64,000 nt of DNA from contig FIZI01000005.1 in assembly GCA_900016865.1 (NCBI GenBank), positions 37,895 through 101,894 of the forward strand. Direction: 5' to 3'. Origin of the DNA: an uncultured Clostridia bacterium. GTDB taxonomy: Bacteria; Bacillota; DTU014. Of this stretch, positions 11,694 to 18,812 are shown in pieces; the first letter of the stretch is position 1; each line of letters starts with the position of its first letter. Position numbers and translations under genes: made by a program. The notes below the pieces were generated by a model that searched no databases, was not told the origin of the DNA, and worked only from the letters and a program-made list of their open reading frames with translations.

Positions 11694-13289
11694 TCACTCC
11701 AAGCCGACGCATTCACGTTCCAAACTTCTGGCTAGCTCAATAGCGCTGTTCATGGCCTGGGCCTTGTTGACCGTCTCTTCGTATTCCCTAGTCGCGTCAG
11801 AGTCTGCGACTATTCCGGCCCCCACCTGAACTTGTGCAACTCCGTCGGCTATCACCAACGTCCTGATCGCTATGCACATATCCATGTTGCCTGAAGCCCC
11901 GAAGTAACCGACCGCACCAGCGTAAATGCCGCGGCGACTGAGCTCCTGCTCCTCAATGATCTTCATCGCCTTGGCCCTGGGCGCCCCAGTCACTGTACCT
12001 GCAGGAAAGGTCGCCTTGAGCAGGTCATACTGGTCGTATTCAGGAGACAGCTCGCCCTTCACAGATGACACGATGTGCATGACATGCGAATAACGTTCTA
12101 TCCGCATTTGCTCTTGTACTCGAACAGTACCGGGTACGCATACACGGCTCAAATCGTCTCTGCTGAGATCAACAAGCATGGAGTGCTCGGCACGCTCCTT
12201 CGCGTCTGCGAGGAGGTCTCTCTCCAACCACTGGTCTTCCTCTGCTGTCTCCCCGCGGCGCCTGGTCCCGGCTATGGGCCTCACCTCTACATCTCTGCCA
12301 TTGAGCCTCACTAGCATCTCTGGAGATGCGCCGACTACTTGCATATGCCCGAAGTCTAGTAGGAACATGTACGGAGATGGATTTATGGACCTCAAGGCTC
12401 TGTACACAGCCAGTGCGCTTGACTGAATGGGGATGAGCACCCGTCTGGAAAGGACTACCTGTGACACCTCAGTGTTCAATATGCAGCGTTTAGCCGCTCG
12501 AACGGACCTCTCAAAGCTCTCTCTGTCGGCAAGCACTTCACCAACACTCGAGGCGGGGGTCTCATGGCCAGTGCGACGGTAGCTCTGAGAAGCGCTCACG
12601 TAGCTTTGAGCAGTGCGCAAGTAGGTTTCAAACGTGCGGCTAGAAGGCTTCTCTTGACTGATAGGTTCGCTGAATAGAGGTGTGGACTCATTCGACTTGA
12701 GAATAGACACGAGTTTGCGGAGCTCAAGGATCGCAGATTCGTAATGCGCTTCATTAGCCCCATTGTCGACTCTGCAGTTCACCACAACGGTCAGCGTATG
12801 CCTGAGATGGTCAAACGCCATTACACATCTGGGCACAGCCACCAAGATGTCTGGAAACCTCGTCAATTCAGGCTGCGAGGCGACTCCCTCAAGGAGACGG
12901 GCGTAATCATATCCCACATATCCGACACACCCGCCAAGCAGAGGCGGAAGGCCTCCGATACTCGGTGACCTGAGAGCCTGCATTGCCTCTCTCAAAGCAA
13001 TCAACGGGTCGTGTGAGAACCCTTGAGTGACGTTGCCATCCTGTACGATCAAGTACCTGCTGCCCCTCGACTCAAACACCATCAAAGGGTCACAGCATAC
13101 AAACGAATAACGCCCTACCTTTTGGCCTTGCTCAGCGCTCTCTAGGACGAACATGTGACCTCGCTGTCTAAGGCGGCAGGCAACACTCATTGGGGTCTCC
13201 AGATCAGCGACGACTTCGGCCCAGACAGGCACCATCGGGTAATCCTTGGCGAGTTTCAAGAACTCAGTAGCTGATAAACCGAGCATCAT
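11694..13289 (-). CDS. trpE: anthranilate synthase component I (no fused amidotransferase domain)
   Basis: Chorismate-binding core (NPSPYMF, IAGTRRRG, GAVGYFG). The track start 13505 lies inside the attenuator terminator stem. ATG 13289 is preceded by AGAGGTGA and reproduces the TrpE N-terminus (MMLGLSATEFLKL...). Confidence 0.9.
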   Translation of the reverse strand: MMLGLSATEFLKLAKDYPMVPVWAEVVADLETPMSVACRLRQRGHMFVLESAEQGQKVGRYSFVCCDPLMVFESRGSRYLIVQDGNVTQGFSHDPLIALREAMQALRSPSIGGLPPLLGGCVGYVGYDYARLLEGVASQPELTRFPDILVAVPRCVMAFDHLRHTLTVVVNCRVDNGANEAHYESAILELRKLVSILKSNESTPLFSEPISQEKPSSRTFETYLRTAQSYVSASQSYRRTGHETPASSVGEVLADRESFERSVRAAKRCILNTEVSQVVLSRRVLIPIQSSALAVYRALRSINPSPYMFLLDFGHMQVVGASPEMLVRLNGRDVEVRPIAGTRRRGETAEEDQWLERDLLADAKERAEHSMLVDLSRDDLSRVCVPGTVRVQEQMRIERYSHVMHIVSSVKGELSPEYDQYDLLKATFPAGTVTGAPRAKAMKIIEEQELSRRGIYAGAVGYFGASGNMDMCIAIRTLVIADGVAQVQVGAGIVADSDATREYEETVNKAQAMNSAIELARSLERECVGLE

Positions 13290-13473
13290 CTCATTCACCT
13301 CTGAACAGCATGAGGGACAGCGTGAGCTCTCGTGCTGACAAGGGTCTAAACATACAAAAAGACTCCCTGCAGCACCACCTGCCGGCTCATATACGCTGTG
13401 CGAAACAGGCAAGTATAAGGCCTGCACAGCGGTGTCCGGCTTCACCGTTGATGGCAAGGAGTCAGACGTATAG

Positions 13474-13506
13474 ACAAAAATGCCGGACTGGAAGTAGCCC
13501 GGCATT
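13474..13506 (-). terminator. trp leader attenuator terminator (intrinsic)
   Basis: Minus-strand RNA ATGCCGGGCU-ACUUCC-AGUCCGGCAU followed by UUUUUG. The 10-bp stem is immediately 3' of the TRAP triplet array and ~185 nt upstream of the trpE start. Confidence 0.7.
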
Positions 13507-13519
13507 AAACTCGCTCGAC

Positions 13520-13612
13520 AGTCTACTCCTCAGCTCATCTCAGCTCAACTCAACTGCTCTCTGCTATAGACTAATTAACCTCAACTCACGACTCTAAGCT
13601 ATCTAGCACTGA
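13520..13612 (-). promoter_or_regulatory. TRAP-binding (G/U)AG triplet-repeat array in the trp leader RNA
   Basis: Leader RNA reads UAG-a-UAG-cu-UAG-ag...GAG-uu-GAG ... GAG-caguu-GAG-uu-GAG-cu-GAG-au-GAG-cu-GAG-gag-UAG. That is at least 11 GAG/UAG triplets with mostly 2-3 nt spacers. Confidence 0.75.
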
Positions 13613-13616
13613 TCGA

Positions 13617-13871
13617 CTAGCTGTCACCCTCCCCGTGACGTCTATGGCCCTCGGACGTGATACCGCCAAACTTGGTCAGTATCTGGGCTTTCCCACGAAT
13701 CTTCATGGCAGACGTGTGCTCCGTGAACTGAGCTATCATAACCTCACCCATATCCAGCTTCTCGCTATGATGAAAACGGGTGTCCTTACCTCTGGTCAAA
13801 CCTATGATAGTCACGCCGTCTTCGAGGGCTTTGATGACAACATACTCGCCCTGCACAGCTTGCTCAGTCAC
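13617..13871 (-). CDS. mtrB: trp RNA-binding attenuation protein TRAP
   Basis: The [53 protein letters not shown] segment is near-identical in pattern to Bacillus MtrB. The GGGAG SD favours the GTG at 13869-13871 (track start 13880). Confidence 0.85.
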
Positions 13872-13900
13872 ACACAACACTCCCAGCCCATGTTGGATTT

Positions 13901-13929
13901 ATTGTATACGACACTCGAGTCGCTGTCAA
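13901..13929 (-). promoter_or_regulatory. sigma-A-type promoter for mtrB (TTGACA-17-TACAAT)
   Basis: Minus strand reads TTGACA (13924-13929 rc), a 17-nt spacer and TACAAT (13901-13906 rc), about 25 nt upstream of the mtrB start. Confidence 0.5.
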
Positions 13930-13967
13930 TAAAAACATGCATCGATGCTCGCACCTAGTCCGAAAGG

Positions 13968-15242
13968 CTATCGGCGAATAGCCGATAGCTCACTGGCGCG
14001 AGTCCTGATCTCCTCCAAGTCTCTATCCAGCCTGGCTACACCGCTCTTCATCGCAGCTTCTGCAACTCGAACTGCGACATTGGGCACGACTCTCGCATCA
14101 AACGGAGCCGGAATGATGTATTCCTCAGACAGCTCGCTGTCAGAAATCAGCTCTGCGATCGCCTCGGCTGCTGCGAGTTTCATCTCTTCATTGATGTCAG
14201 TAGCTCGGACGTCCAAGGCACCCCTAAAGATCCCTGGGAATCCAAGCACGTTGTTGACCTGATTTGAGTAGTCTGACCGTCCGGTTGCTACGACGGCTGC
14301 GCCCGCAGCCGTTGCCTCGTCCGGCCAGATTTCAGGATCAGGGTTGGCCAGTGCGAAGATCAAAGGATCTGAACTCATCGTCCTCACGTGCTCCGCAGTG
14401 AGGACTCCGCCTACTGACACGCCGATAAACACGTCTGCATCTACAACAGCGTCCGCCAGTGTACCAGTCACTCCCGACGGATTGATCCTGCGGGCAAGCT
14501 CTTCCTTCGCCCTGTTGGAGCTGCTCTTCCCTTGTGGGCGGATGATGCCCGATCGATCACACACAACAAGCGATCCTGCTCCCGCGTCACAGAGCAGCTT
14601 AGCTATAGCTATGCCCGCGGCGCCTGCGCCATTGATCACTATCTTGACCTCGTCAAGTGCCTTGTTGACAAGCCTTAGCGCGTTGATAAGCCCGGCGAAC
14701 ACCACTACAGCCGTCCCGTGTTGGTCGTCATGGAATACCGGTATGTCTAGCTCCTGCTTTAGCCTGGCCTCGATTTCAAAGCATCTGGGCGCCGATATGT
14801 CCTCAAGGTTGATGCCGCCAAATGTAGGAGATATGTTTACGATCGTCTTGACAATCTCGTCAACGTCGTATGTATCAAGTACAACTGGAAACGCGTCGAT
14901 TCCTGCGAACTCTTTGAAGAGTATGCTCTTGCCCTCCATCACGGGCAGAGCAGCTCTTGGGCCGATGTCGCCCAGGCCAAGGACAGCCGACCCGTCAGAC
15001 ACCACTGCCACCGTGTTTCCCTTTGATGTGTACTCGTAGACGTCGTCAGGCGAGTCCGCTATGACTTTGCACGGCTCGGCTACTCCAGGCGAATAGGCCA
15101 GGCTGAGGTCCCAAGCGTCGCGAACCCTCACTTTGCTATGAACTGCTATCTTTCCTGTATTGCTTCGGTGCAGCTCCAGTGCATCCGCTTTGAGGTCTCT
15201 CTGCATAGATTTTCTCCTTCCAGCGACTAGGCTAATCCACAA
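13968..15242 (-). CDS. NAD(P)-dependent malic enzyme (short MaeA/YtsJ type)
   Basis: LAYSPGVAEPC, VVSDGSAVLGLGDIG and INGAGAAG (Rossmann) motifs. Confidence 0.9.
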   Translation of the reverse strand: MWISLVAGRRKSMQRDLKADALELHRSNTGKIAVHSKVRVRDAWDLSLAYSPGVAEPCKVIADSPDDVYEYTSKGNTVAVVSDGSAVLGLGDIGPRAALPVMEGKSILFKEFAGIDAFPVVLDTYDVDEIVKTIVNISPTFGGINLEDISAPRCFEIEARLKQELDIPVFHDDQHGTAVVVFAGLINALRLVNKALDEVKIVINGAGAAGIAIAKLLCDAGAGSLVVCDRSGIIRPQGKSSSNRAKEELARRINPSGVTGTLADAVVDADVFIGVSVGGVLTAEHVRTMSSDPLIFALANPDPEIWPDEATAAGAAVVATGRSDYSNQVNNVLGFPGIFRGALDVRATDINEEMKLAAAEAIAELISDSELSEEYIIPAPFDARVVPNVAVRVAEAAMKSGVARLDRDLEEIRTRASELSAIRR

Positions 15243-16115: not shown

Positions 16116-18812
16116 TCACAAAGACCTAAGCTGCTCAAGCCGTTTGACGACCGCTTCGCGTTTTTCAACGCTATCTCTGCGACGCTGCCGCTCTCTCTCT
16201 ACCACTTCGGCAGGAGCTTTTTTGACAAAGCCCTCGTTCGCGAGCTTGCGGTCAAACATCTCAATCTCAGCGTCTAGCTTAGCCAGCTCGCTTTCGAGAC
16301 GCTGAGTCTCCTTGGCTATGTCAACCAGCCCGACCAGGGGCAGATAGATCTGCAGCCCAGGCACTATGGCCGCAGCGGCGTTATCAGGTTCACTGGTCTC
16401 CCCCGGCCGTATCTCTAGGTCGGATATCCCAGCAAGCACCTTCAAGAGATCCTGGTCCCTCTCAACAATCGCGCACCGCTGCGAATCTCCCTGCAAGATC
16501 GCTGGAACTCTTCGTGCGGGCTCGACGTTCATCTCTGCCCTGACATTCCTCACCGCGCGAACGAGGTCCATCAAAACGCCGACCTCCGACTCTACCTCGA
16601 GGTCTCGTTGGCTCTCATCGACAACAGGCCACGGAGCGATGACGATCGACTCACCTTCGTGCGGGAGGCGCTGCCAGATCTCTTCAGTTATGAAAGGCAT
16701 GAACGGGTGCAGGAGCCTCATGGTGTGTTCTAGCACGTGCGAAAGGGTAGCCTGAGCGACTCGTCTGCTCTCGTCGCCGCGCTTCCCATAGAGTCTCGGC
16801 TTGACCATCTCAATATACCAGTCGCAAAGCTCTCCCCAGATGAACTCATATATGACTCGAGCAGCTTCACCTAGGTCAAACCGCGTGAGGAACCGAGTGA
16901 CCTCAGAAATCGCGTTGTTCAAACGAGATAGGATCCATCGGTCCTCCGTCTCAAGTGCCAAGTCGGCCAAGCTTGTCACTGACCCCGGGTCATAATCCCC
17001 AAGGTTCATCAGAGCAAACCGACTTGCATTCCAAATCTTGTTGGCGAAGTTGCGCGATGCCTCTACTCGCTCATCATAAAACCTCATGTCGTTGCCCGGA
17101 GCATTGCCAGTGACCAAGGTGAATCTGAGGCTGTCTGCTCCCACCTCGTCTATGACCTCAATCGGGTCAACTGAGTTACCTAGGGATTTGCTCATCTTCC
17201 GGCCTTCGCCATCTCTTAGCAGCCCGTGTATGAACACTGTCCTAAACGGCACGTCGTTCATAAACTCGAGGCCCATAAAGACCATGCGCGCGACCCAGAA
17301 AAAGATGATGTCGTAACCCGTAACAAGGACTGACGTGGGATACCAATGCTCGAGCTCCTCTGTCTGATCAGGCCACCCCATGGTCGAAAACGGCCAAAGT
17401 GCGGAGCTAAACCACGTATCCAGTACATCAGGGTCTTGGAATATGTCCACACTTCCGCAGTGCGAACACTCTGTAGGATCTTGGCGGGCCACTGTCATTT
17501 CAGAGCAATCACGGCAGTACCATACCGGTATGCGGTGCCCCCACCAAAGCTGCCTGGAAATACACCAATCATGAATGCCTTCCAGCCAGTTGGTGTAGAT
17601 CTTTGCAAAGCGTTCGGGGACAAATCGTATGCGCCCGTCTTGAACTGCCTTGAGCGCGGGCTCTGCCAGCGGCTTCATCTTGACGAACCACTGTTCTGAG
17701 AGATACGGCTCAACCACAGAGTCGCATCTCTGGCAGTGGCCGACCGAATGCTGGTGGTCCTCTAGCTTCACCAGAAGTCCCAACTTGTCCAACTCAGCGA
17801 GGATAGACTTGCGGCACTCGTAGCGGTCCATTCCAGCCATAGGCCCTGCCTCGTCGGTCATCCTGCCGTCCGGCCCTATGACTGTGATCTGCTCAAGGTT
17901 GTGTCTCAATCCTACCTCGAAGTCGTTTGGATCGTGTGCGGGAGTTATCTTGACCGCGCCTGTTCCAAACTCCGGATCGACGTATTCATCTGCGATGATC
18001 GGGATCCTGCGGTTCATGACAGGCAGGATGGCTGTCTTGCCGACGAGATCTTTGTACCGTTCGTCTGCAGGGTTGACCGCCACTGCTGTATCACCTAGGA
18101 TCGTCTCTGGCCGCGTGGTTGCGACGGTGATGTATCCGGACCCGTCCTCCAGCGGGTACTTGACGTAGTGAAGCCTGCCTGCAGTATCGGAGTACTCCAC
18201 CTCAATGTCCGACAAGGCAGTCTGGCATCTAGGGCACCAGTTGATGATTCTTGTGCCCTTGTATATGAGGCCTTTTTCAAACAGGCGCACGAATACCTCT
18301 CGGACAGCCCTGGAGCAACCCTCGTCCATGGTAAAGCGCTCTCTGTCCCAGTCGCAGGATGAGCCCAGACGCTGAAGCTGACCTATGATGCGATTGCCAA
18401 ACCGCTCTTTCCACTCCCAGACGTGCTTCAAGAACTCCTCACGGCCCAAATCATGTCTCGATACGCCCATGGTCTCACGAAGGTGTTCCTCGACCTTCAC
18501 CTGAGTAGCGATGCCTGCATGATCGGTCCCCGGTATCCACACAGTGTTATGCCCCTGCATCCGGTGCCATCTCACGAGTATGTCTTGAAGGGTCTCATCG
18601 AGCGCATGACCCAGGTGCAAATGGCCGGTCACATTGGGCGGTGGAATTACCATGCTAAAGGGTGTGTTGCTCTTGTCCACTTCAGCATGGAAATATCCCT
18701 TCTCAATCCAATACCGGTACCATTTGTCCTCCACGTCTGCAGGATTGTACCTCATACTTAACTGTGTATCTCCCATATAGATCACTCCGATCATGTTGTC
18801 TACGACACTCAC
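16116..18812 (-). CDS. valS: valyl-tRNA synthetase
   Basis: PPPNVTGHLHLGHA (HIGH) and KMSKSLGN (KMSKS) motifs, editing domain and C-terminal coiled coil. The start may be the ATG at 18776 (SD GGAGTGA) rather than GTG 18812. Confidence 0.95.
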   Translation of the reverse strand: MSVVDNMIGVIYMGDTQLSMRYNPADVEDKWYRYWIEKGYFHAEVDKSNTPFSMVIPPPNVTGHLHLGHALDETLQDILVRWHRMQGHNTVWIPGTDHAGIATQVKVEEHLRETMGVSRHDLGREEFLKHVWEWKERFGNRIIGQLQRLGSSCDWDRERFTMDEGCSRAVREVFVRLFEKGLIYKGTRIINWCPRCQTALSDIEVEYSDTAGRLHYVKYPLEDGSGYITVATTRPETILGDTAVAVNPADERYKDLVGKTAILPVMNRRIPIIADEYVDPEFGTGAVKITPAHDPNDFEVGLRHNLEQITVIGPDGRMTDEAGPMAGMDRYECRKSILAELDKLGLLVKLEDHQHSVGHCQRCDSVVEPYLSEQWFVKMKPLAEPALKAVQDGRIRFVPERFAKIYTNWLEGIHDWCISRQLWWGHRIPVWYCRDCSEMTVARQDPTECSHCGSVDIFQDPDVLDTWFSSALWPFSTMGWPDQTEELEHWYPTSVLVTGYDIIFFWVARMVFMGLEFMNDVPFRTVFIHGLLRDGEGRKMSKSLGNSVDPIEVIDEVGADSLRFTLVTGNAPGNDMRFYDERVEASRNFANKIWNASRFALMNLGDYDPGSVTSLADLALETEDRWILSRLNNAISEVTRFLTRFDLGEAARVIYEFIWGELCDWYIEMVKPRLYGKRGDESRRVAQATLSHVLEHTMRLLHPFMPFITEEIWQRLPHEGESIVIAPWPVVDESQRDLEVESEVGVLMDLVRAVRNVRAEMNVEPARRVPAILQGDSQRCAIVERDQDLLKVLAGISDLEIRPGETSEPDNAAAAIVPGLQIYLPLVGLVDIAKETQRLESELAKLDAEIEMFDRKLANEGFVKKAPAEVVERERQRRRDSVEKREAVVKRLEQLRSL

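Follow-up and report, generated by a model that had tools for sequence, protein, structure and literature searches.

A putative TRAP-controlled attenuator with two terminator-like structures between mtrB and trpE of an uncultured Clostridia bacterium

A 64,000-nt stretch of the genome of an uncultured Clostridia bacterium (GTDB lineage Bacteria; Bacillota; DTU014; GenBank assembly GCA_900016865.1, contig FIZI01000005.1, positions 37,895–101,894; hereafter the window, with positions counted from its first letter) carries on its minus strand mtrB, the gene of the RNA-binding regulator TRAP, directly upstream of the leader of a trp operon. This arrangement raises the question of whether the operon under TRAP control has the TRAP gene as its own first cistron and, if so, how the RNA between mtrB and trpE is switched. 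The original prediction, made from the letters of this DNA, was a Bacillus-type TRAP attenuation module, and all of its sequence features were found at their proposed positions. Our reading, to which we assign a probability of roughly 0.7, is that promoter–mtrB–[attenuator]–trpEDCFBA constitutes a single operon in which TRAP would control two successive terminators, designated T1 and T2.

TRAP, its promoter, and the intercistronic triplet array

mtrB (13871–13617, minus strand; start codon GTG at 13871 or, alternatively, GTG at 13880; stop codon UAG at 13619–13617) encodes a protein of 84 amino acids, which matched Pfam TrpBP (PF02081) at profile positions 2–69 of 69 with 136 bits against a cutoff of 21.3 (E = 3.8e-40). 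It also matched the TRAP chains of the PDB (E = 1e-27 to 1e-31), including 1wap and the RNA complex 1c9s (E = 1.3e-30), and a called protein identical to it is present in JGI metagenomes; the contig occurs in digester samples, e.g., JGI 3300002167. When it was aligned with B. subtilis TRAP and 17 homologues, K38, K57, and R59 were invariant across the 19 sequences. We take these residues to be the counterparts of the RNA-binding Lys37, Lys56, and Arg58 (B. subtilis numbering), and the KKR set anticipated by the original prediction is thus present. The loops GLTRGxDTxFHH and AQFTEHTSA, invariant or nearly so in the same alignment, are presumably the tryptophan-binding loops (residues about 25–32 and 49–53), judging from the tryptophan contacts in crystal structures. 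We infer that this TRAP would bind the RNA described below in response to tryptophan. The TRAPs of the clade to which the window belongs also have a charged C-terminal tail of about 9–20 residues (HRRHGEGDS here, 13650–13617), which is not found in Bacillus TRAP; C-terminal residues of TRAP are reported to affect assembly into 11-mers versus 12-mers (PMC3184956).

A promoter-like site with 11 of 12 consensus matches (−35 TTGACA at 13929–13924, 17-nt spacer, −10 TACAAT at 13906–13901, minus strand) was located as predicted upstream of mtrB, just beyond the 3′ end of a malic-enzyme gene on the same strand, which reaches 13968. Scanning for near-consensus sigma-70 promoters revealed no second site on either strand in 13000–14300. 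In L088, L090, L173, and L170, four contigs of relatives introduced below, a promoter-like site (10–11 of 12 matches) has the same position relative to mtrB as in the window and is the only one on the sense strand from the malic-enzyme gene to the trp genes. Since the sole promoter-like site stands upstream of mtrB, mtrB and the trp genes are most probably one transcription unit, with mtrB as the first cistron upstream of both terminators. From this layout, TRAP would be produced constitutively and the trp genes conditionally. An autoregulatory loop, in which read-through from the mtrB promoter into the TRAP-binding site would act back on mtrB, had been envisaged as well and is not supported: the array scan of the window found no triplet array at the mtrB ribosome-binding site, and TRAP binding cannot lower mtrB transcription because both terminators lie downstream of mtrB.

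Relatives were obtained by exact-protein look-ups of the closest (77–100% identity, all metagenomic) of about 4,550 TRAP homologues, which led to contigs sharing the neighborhood malic enzyme–mtrB–leader–trp genes. The cluster of TRAPs with 100% identity includes NCBI "Bacillota bacterium" metagenome-assembled genomes (MAGs). Seven distinct leader versions, from the window, L088, L090, L092, L170, L173, and L094, were compared. A pattern scan of metagenomes for GAGNNGAGNNGAGGAGTAGAC gave 76 stretches, two of which were real relatives.

The putative TRAP-binding array (13587–13523, minus strand) begins 30 nt downstream of the mtrB stop codon and reads GAG uu GAG guuaau UAG ucua UAG ca GAG ag CAG uu GAG uu GAG cu GAG au GAG cu GAG gag UAG. 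The ca. 107 nt downstream of the stop codon contain 19 GAG/UAG triplets, and the densest 110-nt stretch contains 20, the maximum of the window on both strands (minus-strand mean 4.3, standard deviation 2.3). The core GAG-uu-GAG-cu-GAG-au-GAG-cu-GAG-gag-UAG (13551–13523) is the only chain of at least five triplets with 2–3-nt spacers on either strand of the 64 kb. We also surveyed GTDB by a pattern scan with one genome per species, which gave 586 TRAP loci, and examined the context of the best 80; in the 612 kb around these 80 other loci, no chain of at least six triplets was found on either strand. The original prediction of at least 11 triplets with 2–3-nt spacers was right in the number (11–12) and exact in the core, but somewhat overstated the regularity of the spacing: strict spacing of 2–3 nt joins only six triplets, and a count of 11–12 requires spacers of 4, 6, and 5–7 nt and one CAG. 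The leaders of L088 and L090 contain four triplets, a longer spacer, and a block of seven, which makes 11, and the 3′ block of seven is kept in every relative that retains downstream trp genes. The count of 11 is convincing because the relatives repeat this layout of four plus seven, and it bears indirectly on the ring of 11 (or 12) subunits that TRAP would form. The array also agrees with the 9–11 repeats at 2–3-nt, occasionally longer, spacing of TRAP-controlled attenuators.

Terminator T1 and a candidate antiterminator, AT1

T1 starts 16 nt past the last UAG of the array. Its arms, AAUGCCGGGCU and AGUCCGGCAUU, form in the computed fold a hairpin at 13506–13479 (minus strand) of 11 bp, six of them GC, with a 6-nt loop, followed by U5 at 13480–13476; a terminator with U5 had been predicted after the array. 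Its folding energy is −17.0 kcal/mol in the window and −15 to −20 kcal/mol over the leader versions. All seven versions retain T1, and two of its pairs show compensatory changes. An unbroken U-tract follows it in the window, L088, L090, and L170; in L092/L174 and L173/L094 the tract is interrupted.

An alternative structure in which the last triplets exclude T1 could be folded, in line with the expected antiterminator sharing sequence with both the final triplets and the terminator's 5′ arm. With the KKR residues also present, neither of the two refutations of the original prediction that could be checked by computation applies. In this structure, AT1 (13529–13491, minus strand), GGAGUAG at 13529–13523, which contains the last GAG and UAG, pairs with CUACUUC at 13497–13491. 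The partner, CUACUU(C/U), consists of the top of the T1 5′ arm and the T1 loop, and the inner pairs of AT1 together with a small apical hairpin take up the remainder of the 5′ arm. When the RNA ended before the T1 3′ arm and included 70 nt of upstream context, AT1 was the minimum free energy (MFE) structure in all seven leader versions, and the RNAalifold consensus was AT1 too. The energies computed for it are −9.4 kcal/mol for the window and between −11.7 and −15.3 kcal/mol for the relatives. With the whole leader included, AT1 dominated the ensemble in five of the seven versions, those of the window and L170 being the other two. Six of the seven versions have exactly the T1 loop CUACUU, and the neighboring apical hairpin varies freely; invariance of the loop is expected if it must pair with GGAGUAG. 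A first impression that there is no antiterminator came from the MFE structure of the whole leader, in which the array folds on itself, and was overturned by folding transcripts that stop short of the T1 3′ arm and by comparing relatives. The small hairpin 5′ of T1 was also considered as a stand-alone mini-antiterminator and was rejected, having no overlap with T1 in L170; it is better regarded as the apical part of AT1.

The 15 nt past the mtrB stop codon (within 13619–13601) can pair with the segment just after the last triplet (UCGAUCAGU with ACUGUCGA), a pairing that competes with AT1. Blocking the stop codon and these 15 nt, as a terminating ribosome would, turned AT1 into the MFE structure in the window and L170. 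It is possible that translation of mtrB is linked to antitermination.

The trp attenuators of Bacillus are weak and AU-rich, and their antiterminators overlap them by 0–5 nt, whereas strong intrinsic terminators have been argued to need antiterminators with more overlap and greater stability (PMC3064811). T1 is strong and GC-rich, and AT1, spanning essentially its whole 5′ arm and most of its loop, fits this requirement. Given the weakness of the Bacillus attenuators, an active part in termination has been ascribed to TRAP (PMC3064811, PMC3913778), and the same could apply here, with TRAP acting mainly by termination or pausing at the U-tracts, refolding being secondary, and AT1 and its downstream counterpart AT2 playing minor parts. 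In B. subtilis, TRAP-dependent termination that requires neither the antiterminator nor even the attenuator hairpin has been shown (PMC3064811, PMC3913778). For B. halodurans, another TRAP-regulated trp leader from a non-subtilis lineage with RNA structures unlike the model, the same two reports, summarizing Szigeti et al. (2004), describe a very weak attenuator and no evident antiterminator that overlaps it. Moreover, the U-tract after T1 is interrupted in some relatives. On the other hand, the T1 of our window is unlike the weak attenuators of Bacillus, and so strong a terminator should terminate constitutively without an antiterminator. The overlap of AT1 with T1 is extensive, unlike in B. 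halodurans, and this architecture is conserved among the leader versions. We consider mainly active termination unlikely in this lineage.

T1 could also simply end a monocistronic mtrB transcript, the trp genes having a separate, unrecognized promoter and the array acting on the stability or feedback of mtrB mRNA. T1 has the strong, canonical form (11 bp, −17 kcal/mol, U5) that this explanation calls for, AT1 is marginal in the window, and the promoter scan sees near-consensus sites only. However, no promoter-like site was seen from T1 to trpE in the window and four relatives, and the broken T1 U-tracts in L092/L174 and L173/L094 fit an obligatory gene-end terminator poorly. The 5′ arm of T2 is complementary to the array. 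Furthermore, the array is gone from L087, which has kept mtrB and lost the trp genes, while L170, with only trpBA, retains both the array and T1. Therefore, the array is tied to the downstream genes, not to mtrB, and a monocistronic mtrB transcript with an unconnected trp operon is, in our estimation, quite improbable.

A second terminator-like structure possibly wired to the same triplets

The stretch of about 185 nt between T1 and trpE had been regarded as plain leader. Instead, it holds another terminator-like structure, also conserved, with a link by complementarity to the last triplets. T2 (13463–13356, minus strand) has a 10-bp basal helix formed by GACUCCUUGC (13463–13454) and GCAGGGAGUC (13370–13361), followed by U5 at 13360–13356, and the helix closes a structured, sequence-variable interior of about 83 nt in the window and 60–110 nt in relatives. 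The basal helix and U-run are present in every trpE-bearing relative, including L088, and are not found in L170, in which mtrB is followed by trpBA. Each trpE-bearing relative has kept the box CGUCUGACUCCUUGCC directly past T1 and, 60–110 nt past the box, GCA(A/G)GGAGUC with a U-run. The 15-nt box CGUCUGACUCCUUGC is nearly invariant amid highly variable sequence. Array, T1, box, and T2 are conserved among relatives whose TRAPs are 77–86% identical, and the flanking leader has diverged.

The segment GUCUGACUCCUU (13467–13456, minus strand) can serve as the 3′ strand of a second antiterminator, AT2, by pairing with GAGGAGUAGAC at 13531–13521, which contains the last triplets. AT2 comprises 11 pairs with one bulge, would enclose T1, and overlaps the T2 5′ arm (8 of 10 nt); 98.6% of the alignment cells are paired. 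In TRAP-free transcripts ending between the box and the T2 3′ arm, AT2 was the main pairing for five of six relatives, and the expected number of its pairs was about 12.5 out of 13. In the full-length leader cut at the T2 U-tract, AT2 was absent from the equilibrium structure, and it appeared in the MFE structure of the 337-nt leader of the window. Two other candidates in this region were rejected. The box partner in L088, GCAAGGAGU, was considered as the trpE Shine-Dalgarno sequence, which would have made a sequestering hairpin; the real trpE start of L088 lies about 65 nt further, and the element is T2 with its U-run. A leader peptide after T2 (ATG-UUU-UAG in the window) is unconserved in relatives.

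From these features, the following mechanism may be proposed. The promoter would drive mtrB constitutively, and TRAP would be made from the first cistron regardless of downstream events. Tryptophan-loaded TRAP would wrap the ca. 11 (G/U)AG triplets of the intercistronic RNA, of which the last, GAG-GAG-UAG, would be the switch. In TRAP-free RNA, the last triplets would first engage the T1 loop and 5′ arm as AT1, and polymerase would pass T1. Once T1 had folded, the same triplets would pair with the downstream box, GUCUGACUCC, as AT2 and hide the T2 5′ arm, so that both terminators would be passed and the trp genes transcribed. With TRAP bound, neither AT1 nor AT2 would form; the strong T1 would terminate most transcripts, and T2 would catch those that leak through.

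Several points weigh against this mechanism. AT1 of the window is weak (−9.4 kcal/mol versus −17.0 kcal/mol for T1); in the whole leader it lies 1.8 kcal/mol above the MFE in both the window and L170, and its expected number of pairs in the window is only 0.37 out of 7. At equilibrium, T2 forms with the array free or constrained alike, and a basal helix around about 83 nt (60–110 nt in relatives) is atypical of a terminator. AT1-P1 and AT2 are nearly invariant and hence offer no covariation proof, and their conservation could reflect TRAP binding to one strand together with T1/T2 pairing of the other. The promoter scan detects near-consensus sigma-70 sites only, and a weak internal promoter could escape it. 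Taking these points together with the folding of the relatives, AT1 appears to exist: five relatives show it robustly, and it is marginal in the window, for which our confidence is moderate. Since T2 is preferred at equilibrium either way and AT2 lacks covariation, the coupling of T2 to TRAP rests on folding kinetics; we infer that AT1 and AT2 may act kinetically and that T2 may be coupled to TRAP in this manner.

A tentative alternative, to which we give a real but minor share of the probability, is that T1 alone is regulated by TRAP. T2 could then terminate partially and constitutively, serve RNA stability or processing, or sense another signal, and its complementarity to the triplets would be incidental. 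The equilibrium folding of T2 and the missing covariation of AT2 fit this alternative, as does L170, which manages on T1 alone, and the T2 interior, being large and variable, could serve as a platform for binding. Against it, the near-invariant 15-nt box can form 11 pairs with the last triplets, which vary as little, and in five of six relatives AT2 prevails in every co-transcriptional intermediate. In addition, no relevant Rfam family, T-box included, matched 13100–14100 even at E ≤ 10; the comparison with Rfam leader models proposed originally thus gave no matching model. In the whole window, no Rfam family reached its gathering score, including upstream of valS (16116–18812), where a T-box might be expected in Bacillota.

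The corrected trpE (minus strand) comprises 531 amino acids from ATG 13289 (Pfam Anth_synt_I_N and Chorismate_bind; 13302–11694 with its Shine-Dalgarno sequence, AGAGGTGA / AGAGGUGA, at 13302–13295). The alignment to relatives begins at 13289 (MMLGLS here, MRLGLT in relatives), as the original prediction had placed the start. Public gene calls (L001–L006) and the longest open reading frame (ORF) begin trpE at ATG 13505, inside the T1 5′ arm, and give 603 amino acids. Judged by this alignment, the called trpE is 72 codons too long, the extra codons being leader RNA with T1 and T2, and a systematic mis-annotation of trpE is thereby corrected. Downstream on the same strand, Pfam assigned trpD (11649–10615), trpC (10597–9746), trpF (9717–9016), trpB (about 9017–7731; start inferred from a 428-aa gene call in identical contigs), and trpA (7734–6844), followed by a DUF2007 gene (6351–6157) and then accD and accA. 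As predicted, no trpG was assigned from trpE to trpA. A motif search by regular expression, a weak test confined to the 64-kb window, gave nothing convincing for trpG/pabA or anti-TRAP.

Distribution of the layout and comparison with known systems

Behind an intact mtrB, the relatives show stepwise loss of the operon, from trpE-B-A through trpB-A to nothing. L092 and L174 (in the set of relatives that includes L092/L093) have trpE-trpB-trpA without trpDCF behind the malic enzyme–mtrB pair, and L172 and L174 have their trpE broken into two ORFs. L170 has trpB-trpA alone behind mtrB and lacks the box. In L087, where the trp genes are missing altogether, mtrB is followed by no more than 12 nt left over from the T1 arm.

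The arrangement is as unusual as had been supposed: among the best 80 of the 586 GTDB TRAP loci, none has trpE directly after mtrB. In about 44 of the 80, all of the Bacilli type, folE and/or hepS stand beside mtrB, and in about 19, from lineages of the Clostridia type, the order is mtrB-accD-accA (L009, L014, L015, L017, L019, L024, L026, L028, L033, L035, L037, L038, L041, L047, L048, L058, L063, L082, and L085). The single partial match among the 80 is L034 (4237–6773), from a distant Bacillota MAG, with a trpE domain 1.1 kb from mtrB. Its order is TrkA_C–mtrB–215-nt leader, a 773-aa ORF for a DAHP-synthase::anthranilate-synthase (TrpE) fusion, and trpG. The GAG/UAG triplets in its leader are broken up by two small GGGCU...AGCCC hairpins, and the leader ends in GAGauGAGcuGAG and a terminator. 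We found no description of mtrB inside a trp operon in the literature searched, and an earlier description may exist.

The module shares with the TRAP/trpEDCFBA leader of B. subtilis the protein family, the identical RNA- and tryptophan-binding residues, and about 11 GAG/UAG repeats. The candidate AT1 resembles the B. subtilis antiterminator in that the last repeats form its 5′ strand and that it would exclude a downstream terminator. A second, downstream layer of control by a leader segment freed on TRAP binding would also be common to both. In B. subtilis, this layer is a hairpin that sequesters the trpE Shine-Dalgarno sequence and is thus translational, whereas here it would be a transcription terminator. 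The gene order differs as well. In Bacilli, mtrB stands in folE-mtrB-hepS and the binding site in a 5′ leader; here, mtrB is probably the first trp cistron and the putative binding site is intercistronic. The trp operon of B. subtilis is embedded in an aro supraoperon, and the operon described here lies outside any. In B. subtilis, the folE-mtrB-hepS locus lies a few kb from trpE as a separate operon; the statement in the original prediction that mtrB is unlinked to trp in that species was too strong. The window, with malic enzyme–mtrB–trpE, does not match the Bacillus-type mtr locus. Thus, "Bacillus-type" fits the mechanism and not the locus, since neither folE nor hepS stands beside mtrB in the window.

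Two other attenuation systems of B. subtilis resemble the layout. In hut (hutP–terminator–hutHUIGM), HutP, which is activated by L-histidine and binds UAG repeats, is likewise a promoter-proximal, ligand-sensing RNA-binding regulator that recognizes spaced NAG triplets, with a regulated terminator before the structural genes. However, HutP is an antiterminator of an unrelated hexameric fold, binding of which switches expression on, whereas binding here should switch it off. In pyr (pyrR–attenuator–pyrP–attenuator–pyrB), the attenuation protein PyrR is the first gene product of its own operon, serial attenuators lie downstream, and binding favors the terminator. PyrR differs in having a phosphoribosyltransferase fold and in binding a structured anti-antiterminator hairpin, not a triplet array. 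An attenuator also lies upstream of pyrR, so that PyrR autoregulates, and none was seen upstream of mtrB here.

The window is the common mtrB-accDA neighborhood with the trp operon and the DUF2007 gene placed between mtrB and accD. Linkage of trpA with accD also occurs in proteobacteria, e.g., trpFBA-accD-folC (PMC6614838). Together with the clostridial mtrB-accDA loci, this linkage hints that mtrB-trp-accDA could be ancestral. In a more speculative version, which we hold at low confidence, mtrB–[attenuator]–trp-accDA would be the ancestral home of TRAP, and the folE-mtrB state of Bacillus, with trp located elsewhere and a weak attenuator dependent on termination actively induced by TRAP, and the clostridial mtrB-accDA would be derived after the trp genes moved or were lost. 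The attenuator would have two checkpoints, with GAG-GAG-UAG controlling two successive terminators, and termination of mtrB translation could bias the choice of antiterminator.

The locus is a genuine variant, though a rare one, of the TRAP system known from Bacillus. TRAP is the textbook case of protein-mediated attenuation, yet knowledge of it comes nearly all from a few Bacilli. The array is a clean sequence signature with which TRAP sites outside Bacilli can be located. The lineage described here provides a natural contrast, having a strong terminator whose antiterminator overlaps it fully, another terminator that is apparently wired to the same triplets and replaces translational control of trpE, and the regulator gene in cis, ahead of the switch. 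It could reveal to what extent TRAP regulates by RNA refolding only and how Bacillus came to have its regulator apart from the target, and it offers a clue to the assembly of the TRAP regulon.

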